A DNA stretch of 27,229 bases from a virus (taxonomy: Duplodnaviria; Caudoviricetes): positions 1-27,229 of IMG/VR virus record IMGVR_UViG_3300013114_000374; one strand, written 5' to 3'. A program made the translations under genes and the position numbers. Below are positions 10,518 to 22,960 of this stretch, one piece after another; within the stretch, counting starts at the first letter, position 1, and every line of letters starts with the position of its first letter. The notes under the pieces are model-generated. The model did no database searches. It had not been told where the DNA came from and worked only from the letters and a program-made list of their open reading frames with translations.

Positions 10518-11798
10518 TTAGAAGGTCGGGGCGCTCTCCTCAAAACTATAGAGAGCATATCTTAGTGCATCGGCCATATGAGAAGAAGAATCATGTACGG
10601 GCTTCTCTCTTATTAAGTTGGGATTTGGATCCCATCTATATTGGTCGAGACAACGTAAAACTTCGGTGCATCCTTGATCTACTATTAATCTATCATTCTC
10701 TACCAGGGATGCTACATGTCCTATACCATCAACTTGGGATTTTTTAGCATTTATAGTAGAAATATCATAGTTCTGTGCAAAGTCAAATCTTGTTTGGGCC
10801 GCAGCAGCATCTATAAAACAATAATCTGCTTCTCTCCTTTCTATGATTTCTGCTAAAAATCCGGCGTGCTCTTCCGTTGTTCTTTCTGCCGCATAGTATT
10901 CTTCAATTACATAGTATTTATATTCATCGTAAGCAATGACACAAAACGCAGTTGGGTCTCTGAAACCTACATCAAGCCCACAAATAATATCCATGCCACT
11001 AAGGTCCATGGAAGATAAGTCTGCTATACACTTATCATAATTAAAGTTCCAAATTTGTCCTTCAAATATATTAAAATCTGCCTCATATTCTTGGGCAAAC
11101 TCTGCAGCGCTCATAGCTTTCCTGGCTTCTTCAATATCACTTTCAACTGCACGTGGGTTGTCTTGCCATGTAGCTTTAACGGAAGCCCACTCACTAAAAT
11201 CGTCTGTAAAACCTCTCTGGTAAAATCGACTGAACCAATTATTCCGACCCCGTGGCGTGCTGATAAACAGAGCTTTGGAACCTACCTTATCTAAAGTAGG
11301 TCTTATAGCTACATTAAAAGCTGTTTCTCCATCGGCCAACGCCGCCTCGTCAAATAGAACAAAGTCATACGAACGTCCAACAACAGAATCAATTTGATTT
11401 ACCGAACCAAGCCTAATAGTAGACCCATTAGATATTTCTATAACTCTGTCCTTCGCATTGTCTTTGGTTATTTCTAAATCAAAATGTTTTATTAGGTTTC
11501 TTTGCAAATCAAAACTAATATTAGATAAGTTATAATTTGGAGAAACTATTAAAACATGACACCCAGGAACTAAAGACACACACTGGGCTATAATATTTCC
11601 TATATACGTTTTACCTTGTCGTCTGGATAAAGCTCCCACCACAAAACGATATTTATCCGAATTTAGGGCGTTTATTAAGGCTATCTGAGAGGGTATCGCT
11701 TTGATACCAAGTAAGTCTAAATAGCCTTCAATGGGTACTTTTAAAAAAGTACCTGGTATTAATCTGTCTTGGACGATATCTCGTCTACTGATTTCCAT
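10518..11798 (-). CDS. terL: Terminase large subunit (T5-like)
   Basis: Walker A SRRQGKT, Walker B VLFDEAA, ISTPRG, nuclease GLDVGFRD and HMADALRYA; likely start MEISRR. Confidence 0.97.
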   Translation of the reverse strand: MEISRRDIVQDRLIPGTFLKVPIEGYLDLLGIKAIPSQIALINALNSDKYRFVVGALSRRQGKTYIGNIIAQCVSLVPGCHVLIVSPNYNLSNISFDLQRNLIKHFDLEITKDNAKDRVIEISNGSTIRLGSVNQIDSVVGRSYDFVLFDEAALADGETAFNVAIRPTLDKVGSKALFISTPRGRNNWFSRFYQRGFTDDFSEWASVKATWQDNPRAVESDIEEARKAMSAAEFAQEYEADFNIFEGQIWNFNYDKCIADLSSMDLSGMDIICGLDVGFRDPTAFCVIAYDEYKYYVIEEYYAAERTTEEHAGFLAEIIERREADYCFIDAAAAQTRFDFAQNYDISTINAKKSQVDGIGHVASLVENDRLIVDQGCTEVLRCLDQYRWDPNPNLIREKPVHDSSSHMADALRYALYSFEESAPTF

Positions 11799-12016
11799 AA
11801 TTCTTTGCACTCGCAAGGTTCAGCGTTACATTCAGGACAGATACTAGACCATCCTCTCAATCTTTCTAAAGGAGACCACTCCTTTTGTTCTTTTGTTGTA
11901 GTCTCTGTAGCTGGAGGAACTGAATCAGGATCTGCGTCCCAGGCTTCTTCATAAGTCTTATATTTTTTAGCACTTCCAGATACTTTCCACATATTTCTTT
12001 TTTGAAAAACTGTCAT
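11759..12016 (-). CDS. Hypothetical protein with Cys cluster (CPECNAEPCEC)
   Basis: 85 aa, abuts the upstream gene, co-oriented. Confidence 0.65.
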   Translation of the reverse strand: MTVFQKRNMWKVSGSAKKYKTYEEAWDADPDSVPPATETTTKEQKEWSPLERLRGWSSICPECNAEPCECKELWKSVDEISSKTD

Positions 12017-12301
12017 TTACATCCCCGTCGAGATAGAAAGAATTGTTCCTGCTAAAAATACTATGGTAGTGCCACTTACAGTAATTACTAATTTATGCAG
12101 GCTTTCTATTCTCGCTTTGAGTTCTTGATTAGTGACAATTTGTGTGTCTCTCAATTCTCGAAACTCGTTAAAGATTGTTTTCCACCTTTCTTCTCCCACA
12201 GCATCGTGCGTGTAGAAGTCTTGTCTGAGCTGACGATGGTCAACCCACAGGTTATCTAAATCTTTTTGAATTTTTTCTAAACTATCCGCTTGTGGGTCCA
12301 A
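12017..12301 (-). CDS. Coiled-coil protein with C-terminal transmembrane helix (XhlA/holin-like architecture)
   Basis: Heptad-rich N-terminus, hydrophobic tail LVITVSGTTIVFLAGTILSI. Confidence 0.6.
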   Translation of the reverse strand: MDPQADSLEKIQKDLDNLWVDHRQLRQDFYTHDAVGEERWKTIFNEFRELRDTQIVTNQELKARIESLHKLVITVSGTTIVFLAGTILSISTGM

Positions 12302-12716
12302 GTAACTTCTCCATTAGCTTTCCATAATTTCCTTCGCCAAAGGGAGAATTGATTTGCACATTCTGCTGTCTGATGTTAGTAGCAGTAGTGGAAGTCTTTT
12401 TATGATCTTCCGAAATTTTATGCGCTAGTGCAATAATATCGACGAGGTCTTTTGATGAGTACTGATCGGACTCGCGGGCCTCTTCTAGTTTTTTCTCTAT
12501 TACTTCATCTAAAAGGTCTGCGAGTCGGAATCTGTTGCGATACCCTTGGTCGAGATAGACCGAGTTGACATATTCTTTTACTTCGCTCTTTTCAAGAACG
12601 TTATAAACTTTATCGGGAGTAACTCCTAGTTGATTCGCCGCCGTAAGTGCGGAGCCTGTAGAGAGATATGCGTTAGCCACCTCTAGATTTTCTGGAGCTA
12701 ATTTTACAAGTTTCAT
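12282..12716 (-). CDS. terS: Terminase small subunit (T5-like)
   Basis: LAPENLEVANAYL HTH, DQGYRNR, YSSKDLVDII, NYGKLMEKL; synteny. Confidence 0.88.
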   Translation of the reverse strand: MKLVKLAPENLEVANAYLSTGSALTAANQLGVTPDKVYNVLEKSEVKEYVNSVYLDQGYRNRFRLADLLDEVIEKKLEEARESDQYSSKDLVDIIALAHKISEDHKKTSTTATNIRQQNVQINSPFGEGNYGKLMEKLLGPTSG

Positions 12717-12772: not shown

Positions 12773-13957
12773 TTAGCTACCAAACTGATTCGTTGCTGTT
12801 AAGATAATATTAGAAGAAGTTTCTATTATAGTAGCATCGGACCCCGCTGTAGATATATCAACCCTAAAAGTAATAGAATCAGATGCAAATCCTGCGCCAT
12901 CCCTTTGTATTCCAAAATCTCTTTGGGCATTTAATTGAAGCCAAGTATTATCAGCACTACCATATACAGTTCCAATACCTGTAGGCCCTGAAATAATAGT
13001 GAACTTAACATAATAATTACTTCCAACTCCTACAGCTGGCGCCGTATACCAATCTTCATCCGTAATATTACCACCAAGCCCAGTACTCCTGTACCCAATA
13101 GAATTTCCATCTGTTAGCAGACTAAGATAACAAATTACAACTGTCTCAGAAGCGCCAGAAAAGCTCCAAGAGGTTGTAACTACCCCACAATCATCGGCTA
13201 CTCCTGGTGTAGTCTTAACTACTGTAACACTATTAGAAGAAGTTTCATCCGGGCTAGGGGTTTCATCAATTGCTCTAGCTCTATAATAATAGGCTGTCTT
13301 AGCTGTAAGCCCCGTTTTAGTATAACTTGTAGTTCCTATAGACAAATTTTCAGTAACAAAAGAACTAAAATCAACTAAAGTAGAAATATCTAATTTATGA
13401 TCTTCCGCTCCGGCAGAGGCAGTATAACTAAAGGTTTGAGAAGTCTCTGAAACATTTGCTATTGAAAGAGCTGTAGGAGGCTGAAGGCTGCTACCACCAC
13501 TTCCTGCGCCCTCTTGGTTTATTCCTAGGGTAAAAATTCTGTAAGTTTTTTGAGAACTATCTTGGTTGAATACTTTTAATGTTGTTTTTGTGATTTCCCA
13601 ATAAAATCCAGCATCATCAAAATCTGGGTAAGTTCCAGTTATATCCGCTCCCCAGTTATCTAATACTGTGAAATTATCGGATATGAAGTCATTGGCAGAA
13701 ACTTTTTCAAAACCTACGGTGAGAGGTATAATAGTAAGTGCGGAAGAGAAAGTATGTGTGTATGATGAGTTTGCACTTACTGTTATGTCATAAATATTTT
13801 TTACAAAAAATCCATCTGTAGGGTATAACGTATCAAATAATAATTTATCAGTAGTTTGTAAAGCAGTTCCATTTATAGCATCTTGTCCAGCTTTAGAAAT
13901 TCTAAGTCCGTAATTAGTTCCATTATCTAAATTTCCTATAATAACTCTGTCGTTCAT
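12773..13957 (-). CDS. Putative tail-tip / receptor-binding protein with fibronectin type III domain
   Basis: At the T5 pb5 position; FN3 signature PPTALSI...TSYTKTGLTAKTAYYYRARAI; N-terminus shared with two neighbours. Confidence 0.7.
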   Translation of the reverse strand: MNDRVIIGNLDNGTNYGLRISKAGQDAINGTALQTTDKLLFDTLYPTDGFFVKNIYDITVSANSSYTHTFSSALTIIPLTVGFEKVSANDFISDNFTVLDNWGADITGTYPDFDDAGFYWEITKTTLKVFNQDSSQKTYRIFTLGINQEGAGSGGSSLQPPTALSIANVSETSQTFSYTASAGAEDHKLDISTLVDFSSFVTENLSIGTTSYTKTGLTAKTAYYYRARAIDETPSPDETSSNSVTVVKTTPGVADDCGVVTTSWSFSGASETVVICYLSLLTDGNSIGYRSTGLGGNITDEDWYTAPAVGVGSNYYVKFTIISGPTGIGTVYGSADNTWLQLNAQRDFGIQRDGAGFASDSITFRVDISTAGSDATIIETSSNIILTATNQFGS

Positions 13958-14361
13958 GAAGCCTCCATATCACTAATAATGTAACCTATTTCTACTGCGC
14001 TTCCAGTGCTATTATCAAAAGTCAGGGTTCCTGTAGTACCTGTAACAGATTGAGTAACTTCTATTTCTCCCATGATAAGAGGGTCAGCAGAAGAAAGTTT
14101 AGTACTAGAAGTATACCACCATAGTACTAAACTTTTCTTTCCATTTACAGCGGTGAAGCCTATGTTATTTACTCCGGAGCTTAAAGTGACAGTAGTAGCA
14201 GATAAAACTTGACCATAAGGATTACGTGAGTCGAATAAAAGATCATTCGTCCCAGCTAAAACTCCTGCAGTAATGACGGATACTCCCGGTTTACTAACCC
14301 AAAGGCCATAAACATCAGAAGTACCATCATTAGCTTTTCCTACTACTACCCTATCTGCCAT
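13954..14361 (-). CDS. Putative tail-tip protein, paralogue 2
   Basis: N-terminal DRVVVG..YGLWVSKPG..LLFDS; beta-rich. Confidence 0.65.
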   Translation of the reverse strand: MADRVVVGKANDGTSDVYGLWVSKPGVSVITAGVLAGTNDLLFDSRNPYGQVLSATTVTLSSGVNNIGFTAVNGKKSLVLWWYTSSTKLSSADPLIMGEIEVTQSVTGTTGTLTFDNSTGSAVEIGYIISDMEAS

Positions 14362-14487
14362 TTATTTCTGGTTTTGAGAACCACCACCTCCGCCACCTCC
14401 GTGGCCACCACTACCTCCACCACCTTTTTTCTTATAGATATAATAGACTACTGCGCCTACCAATACTAATGCGATTATTGCTTCCAT
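14362..14487 (-). CDS. 41-aa membrane protein with Gly-rich tail (absent from the ORF track)
   Basis: SD AAGGAGGT; MEAIIALVLVGAVVYYIYKKKGGGGSGGHGGGGGGGSQNQK; stop abuts the next ATG. Confidence 0.8.
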   Translation of the reverse strand: MEAIIALVLVGAVVYYIYKKKGGGGSGGHGGGGGGGSQNQK

Positions 14488-14496
14488 ATTACCTCC

Positions 14497-15048
14497 TTAT
14501 GGCCCCGCTGAAACGAGGGTTGACTTGCTGGTATCACCAGCGGCTAAGATAAAATACTTAAAAGTATTTGTCCCATTTAGTCCAAAATTTCGGCCACTCC
14601 ACTCACTTTTAAATCTTCTGCCAGTTATCTTAAATTGTTTGTTCGCATGGTCTAAAGTAAGATGAGATTCATTAAAATTGCAAGTATTCATTAATACAGG
14701 CACTCTTTCTCCTGCATCTTCTATATAAGTAGCTTCGCGAGCATAGGTAGCTTGCCCAATAGAACCAATAGCAGTTCCATCTATACGCATATAAATAATT
14801 AGAGGAGGATAAGAAAGAGATAGAGAGGAATAAGCTTCCCAAGAAGAGTCTGCGGAACTAAATTCACCCTCTGTAGGGGAAGGCATTGTAACGGTAACTG
14901 TGCCAGATTGAAGTACATTGAAAGATTCAGTATCGTCAGAATTAAACATTAATTCAGCATCGGTAGCCGAGGTAACATCTACGGTAGGTTTAGATACATA
15001 AAGACCGTAATCTGTTCCTCGTTTACCAATTAATACTCTTTCAGCCAT
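14497..15048 (-). CDS. Putative tail-tip protein, paralogue 3
   Basis: N-terminal ERVLIG..YGLYVSKPT..LMFNS; SD GGAGAG. Confidence 0.65.
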   Translation of the reverse strand: MAERVLIGKRGTDYGLYVSKPTVDVTSATDAELMFNSDDTESFNVLQSGTVTVTMPSPTEGEFSSADSSWEAYSSLSLSYPPLIIYMRIDGTAIGSIGQATYAREATYIEDAGERVPVLMNTCNFNESHLTLDHANKQFKITGRRFKSEWSGRNFGLNGTNTFKYFILAAGDTSKSTLVSAGP

Positions 15049-15071: not shown

Positions 15072-15100
15072 ATTATACTAACAATGGACAAAAATGTCAA
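15072..15100 (-). promoter_or_regulatory. Sigma70 promoter for the tail-tip trio
   Basis: TTGACA-17-TATAAT. Confidence 0.82.
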
Positions 15101-15117: not shown

Positions 15118-16359
15118 CTATTTAGAAATACAAGACTCACTAGCAGTATTATAGTTACCGCAATTCAAAGTCTTCCAATCAGATACTAAAACAGAGGAAT
15201 CGGGGAGGAAGTCAGACCAAGCATCACCAGGAACTAACTCTGTTTCATAAACAATATCGAACATACCATCACCTGTAATTTCACCAATAAGGACTGGTTT
15301 GGTTATGTGGTGGTTCGGCAACATTGTGGCAACTCCACCTGACAAATTGGGCACGCTAATACCAAGAATAGACTCTTGTACTGCAGCGGGGTCGGTGGAA
15401 CCAGCGGCTTCGACCGCAGCTACCCACATATTGAACCCAATGTATGTAGCTTCCATAGGGTCATTAGTCACTCTATCATTACCAACATAATCTAACCAAG
15501 TGTCTATGAAGTCATCATTTACTTCGGAATCAACATTCATAAAATAATTCCAAGCTGCTAAATGCCCTACTAAAGAAGAAGTGTCTAAACCAGAAAGCTC
15601 TTCCTCTCCTACGCTAAAGGCAACTACAGGAATATTTTCAGGATTTATACCAGCATTTCCAAGTTCTTTATAGAACGGAATATTGGCGTCTCCGTTGATA
15701 GTTGATACAACTGCTGTTTTCTTTCCGGCAGACCCAAACTTTTTAATATTTGATACAATTGACTGCCAGTCTGAATGACCAAACGGGGTATAAGAAATCA
15801 TAATGTCGTCAGGCGAAACTCCGTTCTGCTGTAAGTATGCGTCTAAAATTTTATTCGTAGTGCGGGGATATACATAATCTGTCCCTGCGAGAACCCAACG
15901 GGTGACGCCGAGGTCCATTAAATAGTCTACGGCTGGTATAGCTTGTTGGTTGGGCGCAGCTCCAGTATAAAATACATTCTTCGAAGATTCTTCTCCTTCG
16001 TACTGAACTGGGTAAAATAGTAATCCGTTTAACTCTTCGAAAACGGGTAGGACTGACTTGCGAGAAACTGAGGTCCAGCATCCGAATACCACGTCTACTT
16101 TCTCTTTTTCGAGAAGCTCTCGCGCTTTCTCTGCAAAAAGAGGCCAGTTGCTTGCTGGGTCTACGACAACTGGTTCCAACTTTCTTCCGAGTACGCCTCC
16201 TTTGGCGTTTTGTTGCTCTATGAGCATTAATACTGTATCTTTAAGTGTAGTTTCTGAAATCGCCATAGTTCCTGAGAGCGAATGTAAGACTCCTACTTTA
16301 ATGGGTTCTTGTGCTGCTACGGGTAATGCTAATAATAGTAAAAATAAAAATTTTTTGAT
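15118..16359 (-). CDS. urtA: Urea ABC transporter substrate-binding protein, 413 aa including signal peptide
   Basis: IKVGVLHSLSGTMAISE, VDPASNWPLFAEKA, FGCWTSVSRKSVLPVFE, YPVQYEGEE, GTDYVYPRTTN are UrtA signatures; the frame extends 31 codons upstream of ATG 16266 to an ATC preceded by SD AAGGAG. Confidence 0.95.
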   Translation of the reverse strand: MKKFLFLLLLALPVAAQEPIKVGVLHSLSGTMAISETTLKDTVLMLIEQQNAKGGVLGRKLEPVVVDPASNWPLFAEKARELLEKEKVDVVFGCWTSVSRKSVLPVFEELNGLLFYPVQYEGEESSKNVFYTGAAPNQQAIPAVDYLMDLGVTRWVLAGTDYVYPRTTNKILDAYLQQNGVSPDDIMISYTPFGHSDWQSIVSNIKKFGSAGKKTAVVSTINGDANIPFYKELGNAGINPENIPVVAFSVGEEELSGLDTSSLVGHLAAWNYFMNVDSEVNDDFIDTWLDYVGNDRVTNDPMEATYIGFNMWVAAVEAAGSTDPAAVQESILGISVPNLSGGVATMLPNHHITKPVLIGEITGDGMFDIVYETELVPGDAWSDFLPDSSVLVSDWKTLNCGNYNTASESCISK

Positions 16360-16389
16360 GTGATACTCCTTGTTGTGTGAATTTCGAGT

Positions 16390-16418
16390 ATTATACCATG
16401 AGCGAGTTAGTAAGTCAA
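16390..16418 (-). promoter_or_regulatory. Sigma70 promoter for urtA
   Basis: TTGACT-17-TATAAT. Confidence 0.82.
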
Positions 16419-16579: not shown

Positions 16580-16662
16580 ATCATCCTGGGTGATGGGGTC
16601 AGGTGTTGAGCGATCATCACTCACAATGATAGGGTCAGGTGTTGGTATCATCCTGGGTGATG
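16580..16662. repeat. A-B-spacer-B-A direct repeats at the strand switch
   Basis: ATCATCCTGGGTGATG at 16580 and 16647; GGGTCAGGTGTTG at 16596 and 16632. Confidence 0.85.
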
Positions 16663-16707: not shown

Positions 16708-16849
16708 TGGACAATTGAGGGACTAGGTGAGATACTATGCACATATTAACAAGAGGGGATGAACATAAGGATATAACTAATTGGTATAAAAAGATGCAAA
16801 TAAAGCTTTACATTTGCAACTGGATATGCTCTAATATACACATATTAAC
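16708..16849 (+). promoter_or_regulatory. Two tandem pre-early-type promoters
   Basis: TGGACA-17-GATACT (16708-16736) and TTTACA-17-TCTAAT (16807-16835), each followed by CACATATTAAC. Confidence 0.65.
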
Positions 16850-16867
16850 TTGATAAGGAATGAAAAT

Positions 16868-17173
16868 ATGTCTCAATACACTAACCTGATGGTAACAGCT
16901 TTAGAGGCTGGCACTGTCACCGATTACGCTACAGCGTCGGAATACGCCAACGATAATGGCTTGTCGGTTCGTTCGGTCATCGCAAAGGTTAAAAGCCTTG
17001 GTCTTGACTATACGCCAAAAACTCGCGTTGTTGGCGTTAGGGTGGAGAAATCCACAAAGCAAGACACCGTTGTGGCAATTGCCAAAGCGTTGTCGGTTTC
17101 GGTTGATTCGCTTAATGGTTTAGCAAATGCTAAAGCATCGGCACTCGACACTATCCTAGAGCATTTAGGATAA
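16868..17173 (+). CDS. T5 A2/D3-like DNA-binding protein, copy 1
   Basis: SVRSVIAKVKSLGLDY...TKQDTVVAIA...LNGLANAK pattern recalls T5 A2; SD TAAGGA. Confidence 0.65.
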   Translation: MSQYTNLMVTALEAGTVTDYATASEYANDNGLSVRSVIAKVKSLGLDYTPKTRVVGVRVEKSTKQDTVVAIAKALSVSVDSLNGLANAKASALDTILEHLG

Positions 17174-17460
17174 TGTCGGTTTCAACCACCGCCGCAACCC
17201 CTGCTGTAAAAGGCAGGGCAAGCGGTCTAGCTGGCTGGATTGGCATGGTTATGCTACAGGGTAGCACATTGCCAACCCTGTATGATGCCCTGACTGGTGT
17301 TGCTCATCTGCCGCCATTGAGCTTAACTGCTCTAACATGGGCTGGCTTGTCGCTTTACCTATGGAACGCAATAGCACAAAAAAATGTGCTGTATATGGTA
17401 GGCAATACCATAGGCTTAACGCTTAACTCTATTGTCTTGGGATTGATATTAATCGCTTGA
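17173..17460 (+). CDS. SemiSWEET / PQ-loop-like three-helix membrane protein
   Basis: Three hydrophobic helices; LP after TM1, G..LYLW in TM2, GN.IG in TM3. Confidence 0.6.
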   Translation: MSVSTTAATPAVKGRASGLAGWIGMVMLQGSTLPTLYDALTGVAHLPPLSLTALTWAGLSLYLWNAIAQKNVLYMVGNTIGLTLNSIVLGLILIA

Positions 17461-17485
17461 CAATAGGGCGGCGATATGCTCTAAT
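17457..17485 (+). promoter_or_regulatory. Pre-early-type promoter
   Basis: TTGACA-17-TCTAAT; shares GATATGCTCTAATA...ATATTAAC with the 16807 promoter. Confidence 0.75.
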
Positions 17486-17513
17486 AGACTTATATTAACA
17501 AAGGAAAGAAAAA

Positions 17514-18233
17514 ATGATAACACCTAAAAACGTAATAATGGTTTTGGACACTGAAACCGCTGATCTGTCTGGTGACGTTTACGATGTAGGCTATACCATT
17601 GCGGACAAAAACGGAAACATTGTTAAAACCTATAACGCACTGGTTGAGGAAATTTTTACTAATCCTTCTAAAATGATGACCGCTTTTTATGCTAAAAAAC
17701 TGTTTTCCCACTATGCTCCAATGCTTAATGATGGGCTGATTAAGCTGGTTCCATGGGCTGGTATTGTTAAGCAAATGCAAAGCGATATGGCTGAATACGG
17801 CGTAAAAACCATAGCAGCTTATAATGCGGGTTTTGACCTTCGGGTTATGAAGCAAACAAATAAAGCATTAGGCGATGGAACAAACATCAACAAAACTCCT
17901 GTTAAGGTTTTGGATTTATGGCAATTTGCTTGTGAAACTAAGCTTCAACAAAAAACCTATAAGCGATTAGCGCTTGAAAAGGGTTGGGTTTCGCCTGCTG
18001 GCAATATCAAAACCGGAGCCGAATTCGCTTACCGTTACACCAGCGAACAGCATGATTTTGTGGAAGATCACACCGCCCTAAGCGATGCGATTATAGAAAC
18101 TCAAATTATGGCGGCTTGCTATTCTCTCAAGACGAGAATTCCATACGGCGTTATAAATGGCGCACCTTGGCGACTGGTACAGGATGCGATTGTTGAAAAT
18201 GACTCTAACATTCATGGTAATAAGGTAGCTTAA
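17514..18233 (+). CDS. DEDDh 3'-5' exonuclease (DnaQ/RNase T-like)
   Basis: ExoI VLDTETA, ExoII AYNAGFD, ExoIII HTALSDA. Confidence 0.9.
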   Translation: MITPKNVIMVLDTETADLSGDVYDVGYTIADKNGNIVKTYNALVEEIFTNPSKMMTAFYAKKLFSHYAPMLNDGLIKLVPWAGIVKQMQSDMAEYGVKTIAAYNAGFDLRVMKQTNKALGDGTNINKTPVKVLDLWQFACETKLQQKTYKRLALEKGWVSPAGNIKTGAEFAYRYTSEQHDFVEDHTALSDAIIETQIMAACYSLKTRIPYGVINGAPWRLVQDAIVENDSNIHGNKVA

Positions 18234-21417: not shown

Positions 21418-21438
21418 CCTAATTTTTAAAAAAATTTC

Positions 21439-21467
21439 TTGACAAGTAGGTCAAAAGAGAGTATAAT
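21439..21467 (+). promoter_or_regulatory. Sigma70 promoter for the tmRNA/tRNA operon
   Basis: TTGACA-17-TATAAT with AT-rich upstream element. Confidence 0.88.
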
Positions 21468-21473
21468 ATCTTT

Positions 21474-21747
21474 ATAAAAATTTGAGGAAGCTGAGAATAG
21501 CTGTAATGGACGAGGGTGCGAATCCCTCCAGCTCCACCATAAACACACCTGTAAGGCGTGGTAAGGTTCCCAACGGATTACCGTAGAAGACTACGCAGGG
21601 TGTGTTTTTGATGGGGCTGAATAGTATCGACATGCAGGGAAGGTAAGTGGAGAATTTTTATAACTAAACTTAAACGCAAACGATGACGTTTATTCTTTAG
21701 CTGCATAAGCTAAACGGGGACCGGCCCTCCTTGTTACCCAACGGGCC
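21474..21747 (+). ncRNA. ssrA: Circularly permuted two-piece tmRNA; tag ANDDVYSLAA
   Basis: Acceptor piece ...GGACGAGGGTGCGAATCCCTCCAGCTCCACCA ends 21539; intervening hairpin 21540-21612; coding piece starts GGGGCTGA at 21613; G3:U70 pair; tag ORF 21676-21708; outer boundaries approximate. Confidence 0.93.
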
Positions 21748-21756
21748 TACTTAAAT

Positions 21757-21829
21757 AAGCAATAAAGACATTACGATCAGCTTGGTACTTTCTGCAGAGA
21801 GAACGCCTCCACTGATGTCTTTATTGCTT
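21757..21829. repeat. 17-bp stem hairpin in the tmRNA-tRNA spacer
   Basis: AAGCAATAAAGACATTA / TGATGTCTTTATTGCTT (one G:U). Confidence 0.85.
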
Positions 21830-21844
21830 TCTAAAGAGAATTTC

Positions 21845-21917
21845 GCGGGTGAGTTCAAGGTGAATCGCTGCCCTTCCAAGGCATGCTGATAGAGTTCGAT
21901 TCTCTACATCCGCTCCA
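21845..21917 (+). tRNA. tRNA-Gly (TCC)
   Basis: GCGGGTG/CATCCGC acceptor, U73, encoded CCA, loop CTTCCAA, T loop TTCGATT; short D arm. Confidence 0.9.
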
Positions 21918-22001
21918 GGAAGGGTATGCAAGAGGCTAAAGCTGTCAGACTGTAAATCTGATCCCATGGGTTCGTTGGTTCAAATCCAACCCCTTCCACC
22001 A
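21918..22001 (+). tRNA. tRNA-Tyr (GTA)
   Basis: GGAAGGG/CCCTTCC acceptor, TCAGA-CTGTAAA-TCTGA, long variable arm, encoded CCA. Confidence 0.93.
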
Positions 22002-22006
22002 ATTTT

Positions 22007-22060
22007 TAAAAAAGTTATGTAATATTGGTAGTACAAGTCCAGAATTACATAACTTTTTTA
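22007..22060. repeat. Perfect 17-bp inverted repeat between tRNA-Tyr and tRNA-Asp
   Basis: TAAAAAAGTTATGTAAT / ATTACATAACTTTTTTA, 20-nt loop. Confidence 0.88.
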
Positions 22061-22063
22061 ACT

Positions 22064-22140
22064 GGAGTGGTAGTTCAATAGGCTAGAACGCTGCCCTGTC
22101 ACGGCAGAGGTTGTGGGTTCAAGTCCCATCCATTCCGCCA
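22064..22140 (+). tRNA. tRNA-Asp (GTC)
   Basis: GGAGTGG/CCATTCC acceptor, CTGCC-CTGTCAC-GGCAG, G73, encoded CCA. Confidence 0.95.
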
Positions 22141-22276: not shown

Positions 22277-22608
22277 TGAAATATGTGAATGTTTATGAAG
22301 TAAGTAAATGCTATGGTGGCCCAGAAGAAGGGGGTTGGTGGTATAATGCTGGAGAATTAAGAGAATCTTTTGGCCCAATAACCGAAGTAAAAGCAGAGTA
22401 TTTAGCTACAAGTATTCGCGAAGGCGATAAGCCTCGGTGGCAGTATCAAATGGGTTTCAATTCCACAGATGGTTGCGATCCTGATGGAAATGGTGATGAT
22501 AGCTATCTTATGCGTGGCGGTCCTTGGGGTAGAGCAAAGATAAAAGTATATGTTCAAGACAAGCCAGGAATTAAAAGGTTTCCGGAGGAAAGACCTTACT
22601 ATGAGTAG
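22276..22608 (+). CDS. Hypothetical phage protein (YGGPEEGGWWY motif)
   Basis: YGGPEEGGWWY and C-terminal FPEERPYYE; SD TAAGGA. Confidence 0.75.
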   Translation: MKYVNVYEVSKCYGGPEEGGWWYNAGELRESFGPITEVKAEYLATSIREGDKPRWQYQMGFNSTDGCDPDGNGDDSYLMRGGPWGRAKIKVYVQDKPGIKRFPEERPYYE

Positions 22609-22960
22609 AGGTAGTATACAATTAACAGTTCCAGCGGCTAATCATATAAGTAGTTATATGAATAGAGTGAGGGGAGATATATTAGGCATTAAGTTAAAAA
22701 TGACAACTAATGGTTGTTCTGGTTGGATGTATAAAATGGAAGCCTGTTATGAATACCCTGAAAAAGAAGAATCTCTTATTCTTCTAAGTAGAAATATTAA
22801 GTTATTTGTAGACTTAAAAGACTATAAGTATTTACATAATACAACAATAGATTACGTTAGAGAAGGCTTAAACGAAGGATTTAAGTTCGACAATCCTAAT
22901 GTGGAAGCATCATGTGGCTGTGGCGAAAGTTTCAGCTTTAAAAAGGGAGTAACAGTATGA
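22601..22960 (+). CDS. iscA: A-type iron-sulfur cluster carrier (IscA/SufA/HesB family)
   Basis: GCSG, TIDYVREGLNEGFKFDNPN, CGCGESF; ATG 22601 after GGAGG. Confidence 0.95.
   Translation: MSRGSIQLTVPAANHISSYMNRVRGDILGIKLKMTTNGCSGWMYKMEACYEYPEKEESLILLSRNIKLFVDLKDYKYLHNTTIDYVREGLNEGFKFDNPNVEASCGCGESFSFKKGVTV

Follow-up and report, generated by a model that had tools for sequence, protein, structure and literature searches.

We find that a marine tailed phage, T5-like by its gene content, carries a gene for UrtA, the binding subunit of the bacterial urea importer UrtABCDE, with no genes for the rest of that importer beside it. The gene lies in the window, by which we mean the whole stretch of DNA analyzed here, a 27,229-base virus record that is 28% complete by CheckV. 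In the reading that we prefer, to which we give a probability of about two in three, it is a stand-alone auxiliary gene of the PstS kind, whose exported product would bind urea and feed the host's own UrtBCDE importer. The host sigma-70 RNA polymerase would transcribe it from a phage promoter, and ribosomes would start with low efficiency at an ATC codon behind a strong Shine-Dalgarno sequence, which would likely limit the load on Sec export. The mature protein, which probably reaches the host periplasm in the infected cell, would bind urea and dock on the UrtBC of the host, whose urease or urea carboxylase would then free ammonium; urea import by UrtBCDE would in this way raise the nitrogen supply for virion building. 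This reading is built on the TIGR03407 score, the intact pocket, purifying selection, conserved alignment columns, the lack of a permease alongside, the fixed slot of the gene, its repeated capture, the TonB-dependent receptors and TorF porins, likewise envelope uptake genes, in the loci of relatives, and the precedent described for cyanophage PstS (10.1101/2021.07.20.453049). Counting against it are the weak start codon, the lack of a recognizable nitrogen operator, and the rarity of the gene. The features on which the argument turns are collected in Table 1.

Table 1. Positions of urtA, its expression signals, and the genes around it in the window
Feature	Position	Strand	Basis or remark
urtA, urea ABC-transporter binding protein, 413 codons from ATC	15118..16359	-	TIGR03407, PDB matches, residue mapping, alignment, AlphaFold
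Predicted Sec signal peptide, residues 1-16	16312..16359	-	Translation and hydropathy; basic-hydrophobic-AxA pattern
Shine-Dalgarno AAGGAG (16371-16366), 6-nt spacer, inferred ATC start (16359-16357)	16357..16371	-	
Sigma-70-type promoter-like site, TTGACT-17-TATAAT with extended TG	16390..16418	-	Consensus match
Next promoter-like site (12/12)	15072..15100	-	Immediately follows the urtA stop; precedes the genes downstream
Three ORFs (183, 135, and 394 aa), alike at their N termini	12773..15048	-	Between urtA and terS
terS	12282-12716	-	phrog_3802 and phrog_2 cover the terS/terL pair; anchors the slot
terL	10518-11816	-	terS and terL together span 10518..12716; anchors the slot
Divergent small-gene block (107 aa; 95-aa membrane protein; 239-aa exonuclease-like)	16850..18233	+	Bounds the slot

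A urea-binding protein without its transporter

The window protein scores 551.9 bits against TIGR03407, as compared with a curated cutoff of 492.75, and falls far under the respective cutoffs of an archaeal model and a branched-chain amino acid model. Its best solved relatives in the PDB are 8TG1 and the UrtA structures 8HIC, 7S6E, and 7S6F. The strictly conserved urea-pocket residues described for Prochlorococcus UrtA are W120, S122, Y141, Q144, E146, Y190, N246, and S274 (PMC10392092); mapped via motifs in the 8HIC alignment, all eight are kept in the window protein, as W95, S97, Y116, Q119, E121, Y162, N222, and S249. The Phe192 site, which the same source describes as dispensable or non-essential, is a Tyr (Y164) here, as it is in all 212 aligned rows, and a C400/C410 pair lies near the C terminus. 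The AlphaFold model has a pLDDT of 82.5 and a pTM of 0.86. The phage urtA clade is under purifying selection, with dN/dS of 0.046 to 0.097 at dS of 0.5 to 2.0 in all six pairs drawn from the window and the viral loci L002, L006, and L007, and no stops or frameshifts were seen in phage urtA. Furthermore, the window protein keeps 234 of the 239 columns conserved in at least 95% of 192 homologues outside the clade, along with all 38 family-conserved charged residues, as would be expected if the docking surface is still in use.

In cellular genomes, urtB lies downstream of urtA in all 72 loci with at least 2.5 kb of downstream sequence, as against none of 12 viral stretches. Family searches of four viral records for UrtB and urease, and of two further ones for UrtB, found nothing, all of these records being fragments, and searches for UrtB and urease alpha were empty in both the window and its 39.5-kb near-twin, in line with the first-pass annotation, which had reported no urtBCDE or urease in the window. 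Neither urtB nor urtC stands beside urtA in the window, in G001, or in the other viral loci; a two-pattern scan confirmed none of 52 UrtC candidates in the viral collection; and no partner gene or regulator co-occurs with urtA across the viral loci. Together with the pocket, the selection, the 38 charged residues, and the repeated capture discussed below, these stand-alone loci favor the nitrogen-acquisition auxiliary gene originally proposed from the sequence.

One alternative accepts urea binding and denies the benefit to uptake: as a competitor or buffer, phage UrtA would occupy host UrtBC or hold periplasmic urea, shifting the nitrogen status of the cell. The 11 positions with clade-specific substitutions, V227I and Q236A at family-conserved sites among them, and the long stem branch of the phage clade (0.23 changes per site) are consistent with such a departure, and the damped start codon described below would suit a modulator. 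We nevertheless consider this unlikely, given that the pocket and the conserved charged residues are all kept, that no partner or regulator travels with the gene, and that a lytic phage would gain little from blocking nitrogen uptake.

Start codon, signal peptide, and promoter

The first-pass annotation described an intact urtA with a signal peptide. Family membership and the intact pocket uphold the former, but the signal peptide belongs to the product only if translation starts at ATC, and its plain mention overlooked that no ATG precedes it: the 413-codon open frame has no in-frame ATG, GTG, or TTG ahead of the signal peptide. ORF callers begin the gene at an internal ATG (16266, Met32), and the window's own UrtA cluster representative is called at 382 aa. 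The strong Shine-Dalgarno sequence makes ATC the likely start, and such a start leads gene callers to shorten genes of this kind and to hide their signal peptides. The same AAGGAG-6 nt-ATC layout is found in L006 and in L001, the near-twin, and the 6-nt ATC spacing is common to phages whose terS is 51% identical. In a variant contig from runs X1 and X2, TTG stands at this distance from the Shine-Dalgarno sequence, L007 has an ATG start, and the L002 locus is missing the 5' end of the gene. The start is thus other than ATG in three of the five phage copies in which it was read from DNA (the window, L001, and L006), as opposed to an in-frame ATG in 93 of 95 cellular urtA loci by a loose test. 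The signal peptide itself varies by in-frame length changes only (L001 and a run-X7 contig). In E. coli, AUC is reported to initiate at about 1 to 2% of the level of AUG (10.1101/063800). Because the ATC start is weak, translation is likely damped, and we infer that translation of phage urtA is real at this reduced level, which fits poorly with the PstS model of uptake by sheer abundance.

These starts could also mean that urtA is passive cargo in the course of being silenced, with the loss of ATG having lowered expression and the gene hitchhiking or giving a cytoplasmic Met32 product. The contrast in start codons between phage and cellular copies and the rarity of urtA among relatives would both be explained. 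However, a dN/dS of at most 0.10 at dS up to 2.0, the lack of stops and frameshifts, the restriction of signal-peptide changes to in-frame ones, and an ATC held at identical spacing between such distant phages are not what decay would leave behind, and the Met32 product would be without the first beta-strand of the AlphaFold model. We rate silencing as decidedly unlikely.

The promoter-like site upstream of urtA shares its 17-nt spacer with all 17 sites listed by pattern in the window and the TC before its -35 box with 13 of these 17, which agrees with the original description of a promoter matching the other phage promoters, at the level of a consensus match. A loose scan returned 43 sites against 41.4 in shuffled sequences, that is, no excess, with 8 perfect 12/12 sites among the 43. 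A second promoter-like class, with a -10 of TCTAAT and a shared 27-nt motif, occurs at 16807 and 17457 (+), ahead of the divergent genes. No sigma-54, NtrC, NtcA, or GlnR-like motif was found with four general consensus sequences, from which the host regulator may differ, in the 540 nt upstream of urtA, and hence no nitrogen-responsive control is visible. Where pstS genes have Pho boxes, these serve as an operator for the host's nutrient-starvation regulator. With neither such a motif in these 540 nt nor a co-occurring partner gene, a nitrogen sensor, which had been offered as the alternative role for urtA, finds no support here.

The slot beside terS

The window and the near-twin together show about 27 to 40 kb of a genome of roughly 100 kb, the rest of which may yet encode a permease far from urtA. 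In a scan of 39 ORFs, the left half of the window proved to hold T5-type tail, neck, head, portal, and terminase genes, of which those for the head, neck, tail, and terminase follow the T5 order (PF25747 T5_p143, PF23779, PF23818, phrog_3802, and phrog_3575), and terL is 48 to 49% identical to the terL of cultured Vibrio and Pectobacterium phages. By these genes, the phage is T5-like (Demerecviridae-like). The first-pass annotation had placed urtA between structural and pre-early genes; the structural genes on the left are indeed there, but the label on the right is positional only, as the scan of the 39 ORFs gave no match to any family bearing the name of a T5 pre-early gene.

Of the three ORFs that separate urtA from terS, possibly encoding tail-tip or receptor-binding proteins, that of 394 aa has weak fn3 and tail matches, and the nearest Atlas clusters of that of 183 aa are mostly viral hypothetical proteins; the 135-aa ORF clusters with ORFs of 3 other terL loci among 80 examined. 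On the other side, the divergent small-gene block is also found in relatives without urtA. Its 95-aa membrane protein (17173-17460, +) resembles SemiSWEET/PQ-loop transporters by Atlas leads of 0.88 to 0.89 only and has no Pfam match; as a partner of urtA it was ruled out because it occurs in three relatives that lack the gene. Direct repeats of 16 and 18 nt at 16580-16662, where gene direction switches, are possibly a genome-end or transfer signal. Farther to the right lie a permuted two-piece tmRNA gene (21435-21799, +; RF04321, 97.6 bits; alpha model, 59.2), of a type known from marine phages (PMC9004378), then tRNA-Tyr, tRNA-Asp, and a weak third tRNA match (21845-22140, +), and an IscA/A-type Fe-S carrier (22550-22960, +), IscA being described as a known auxiliary gene of marine phages (PMC5332604).

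A search of viral collections for urtA at this locus, as recommended in the first pass, located it upstream of terS in L001, L002, L006, and L007 as well, so that all five clade members whose DNA context was read, including the window, share this position. Three distant phages, with terS only 44 to 51% identical to that of the window, carry the same UrtA clade near terS, which suggests phage-to-phage transfer. Among relatives the gene is rare. A terS survey yielded 114 loci with a match, or 89 distinct ones after removal of duplicates; of the 22 loci showing terS with the divergent block, urtA is present in one, the near-twin, and it is absent from all 10 closer relatives (terS 74 to 85% identical) among those 22. 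Two complete relatives of 106 and 98 kb are also without it, and we found no UrtA match in 50,697 GenBank phage records, representing cultured phages, and no PHROG for UrtA.

The slot loci of relatives hold TonB-dependent receptors (9 of 89 loci match one of two queries), TorF/Gcw_chp porins (5 of 89), asparagine synthase, and tail-like genes. Instances of TonB-dependent receptors, a TorF porin, asparagine synthase, and PPK2 are at L111 6002-9112, L163 181-2325, L161 920-2677, and L154 2355-2990. In L007, and only there, a TorF porin directly precedes urtA; the porin query gave a single weak, 51-residue match in 80 cellular urtA loci. CsgF, CsgG, and FecR-domain genes follow terS in L006 (2306-5579, +), a urtA-bearing T5-like phage, and CsgG matches occur in several other terS loci.

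Phylogeny, repeated capture, and host

The closest proteins, 85 to 92% identical to window UrtA (88% for L006), form one clade with a support of 100. Sampled cellular sequences reach at most 81% over near-full length, with proteobacterial UrtA at 76 to 81%; the genome scan covered 3 of 64 parts. G052, an 86% match from a cellular genome, was rejected as a clade member, as it is a frameshifted cellular urtA lying outside the clade.

A second set of carriers comprises five T4-like loci (L003 and L226-L229), in which urtA is found among replication and metabolism genes and belongs to a different cellular subfamily from the T5-like clade. In L003 (7935-10879), L226, L227, and L229, it is followed by gapA. 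With sparser sampling, a first AU test left a single viral origin standing (p = 0.297), but with 17 cellular rows added and some others dropped, a single origin of T5-like and T4-like UrtA is rejected (p-AU = 6.3e-6). Judging from these trees, T4-like marine phages captured urtA independently of the T5-like clade. In L267 and L268, which we read as T5-like by gene order, urtA lies right after nrdB; a tree that unites these two with the terS clade could not be rejected (p = 0.20), which makes a third capture no more than a suggestion. For L004, whose UrtA shares 93% identity with a cellular protein, the explanation may be either that the gene was acquired recently or that the locus is a contaminant.

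Phylogeny against cellular UrtA had been expected to predict the host. The phage clade did prove distinct, but it is placed with Woeseiaceae, Congregibacter, and Halomonas/Marinobacter proteins without settling on one group (support 90 to 94), and the tree points to marine gammaproteobacteria without firm support. Two other genes point elsewhere: the best named homologues of the window IscA are mostly betaproteobacterial, at about 50 to 55% identity, and the permuted tmRNA matches the alphaproteobacterial model. We take a marine proteobacterium with urtABCDE to be the likely host.

The position of urtA also raises the possibility of superinfection exclusion or receptor masking in the manner of the T5 lipoprotein Llp, whose gene presumably lies in this region, beside the receptor-binding gene. 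The putative tail-tip genes adjoining urtA upstream of terS and the outer-membrane receptors among the neighbors in relatives are compatible with such a role. Yet in another T5-like lineage urtA follows nrdB, in T4-like phages it sits amid replication and metabolism genes, often before gapA, the hydrophobic stretch of the UrtA N terminus is not followed by a lipoprotein Cys, and the urea pocket is fully conserved, all of which makes this explanation very improbable.

A real locus

L001 is collinear with the window for 17,230 nt at 99.94% identity; the two differ in frame within the signal peptide and may come from one population. Of the contigs from other studies, that of P3 runs across both urtA junctions, with 157 differences over 1,400 nt, and that of P2 across the downstream one; run X1, which may be the source, was left out of the count of independent junctions. 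L002, L006, and L007 link the same UrtA clade to terS. Strain variants that occur together in runs X1 and X2 have urtA in common and differ in their flanks beyond 15071 and 16353, which suggests recombination at the slot edges. An assembly chimera or host contamination, which the 76 to 81% identity to cellular UrtA and a GC3 of 0.35 in urtA versus 0.18 to 0.29 in six phage genes might have indicated, and which was among the objections foreseen in the first pass, is contradicted by the bridging contigs, the collinear near-twin, the distant carriers, and a phage clade distinct from all sampled cellular rows, and is left with next to no chance.

Relationship to known systems and implications

The phage protein resembles the UrtA of bacterial UrtABCDE (TIGR03407; 8HIC, 7S6E, 7S6F, and 8TG1; PMC10392092) in its score, its eight pocket residues, its identity to proteobacterial UrtA, and its predicted exported type I binding-protein architecture. 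It differs in being phage-borne, in forming its own clade, and in having a phage-type promoter, no urtBCDE alongside, and a non-ATG start in several copies. Another parallel is the stand-alone PstS of cyanophages and pelagimyophages, likewise the solitary periplasmic binding protein of an ABC importer, borne by a phage and modeled to rely on host permeases (10.1101/2021.07.20.453049; PMC12379486). Cyanophage PstS is reported to be abundant in infected cells, with uptake rising after infection and docking on host PstCA modeled (10.1101/2021.07.20.453049). Unlike phage PstS, phage UrtA would take urea rather than phosphate, its carriers appear to be T5-like and T4-like phages of likely proteobacterial hosts, and no nutrient-responsive operator was found for it. 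It also recalls the viral amt, glnK-amtB, and focA (PMC9083009 and PMC8115048), which are nitrogen acquisition genes of marine viruses. However, these are described as encoding channels that work by themselves, or else PII regulators, and as serving ammonium or nitrite (PMC9083009 and PMC8115048), whereas phage UrtA is a binding subunit for organic nitrogen and needs a host partner.

We found no publication reporting phage urtA in a search that took in mostly titles and abstracts outside the subscription journals. Term searches of the available running text of PMC9083009, PMC8115048, PMC13067525, PMC5332604, PMC12379486, PMC13196213, PMC11360552, 10.1101/053090, and 10.64898/2026.10.24.761521, and of one 4,059-character supplement of PMC11360552, gave no urea-transport auxiliary gene. 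The treatment of viral nitrogen genes in the available review text covers ammonium and nitrite transport and no urea route (PMC9083009). Growth is stated to be nitrogen-limited across more than 75% of the ocean, and urea is described as an efficient nitrogen source (PMC10392092).

On a broader and more tentative view, which we hold at somewhat less than even odds, urea capture may be a recurrent and so far undescribed nitrogen strategy of marine viruses. At least two, and possibly four, lineages would have independently taken only urtA; one clade would have moved among distantly related T5-like phages, entering a cargo slot for envelope uptake next to terS; and the ATC or TTG start would be a conserved dose control of a periplasmic protein that boosts host urea import. 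In our best reading, phage UrtA is the nitrogen counterpart of the cyanophage phosphate-binding protein. If true, this would carry the PstS model over from phosphorus to organic nitrogen, and to phages that infect heterotrophs, by way of a urea binder that the phage supplies.
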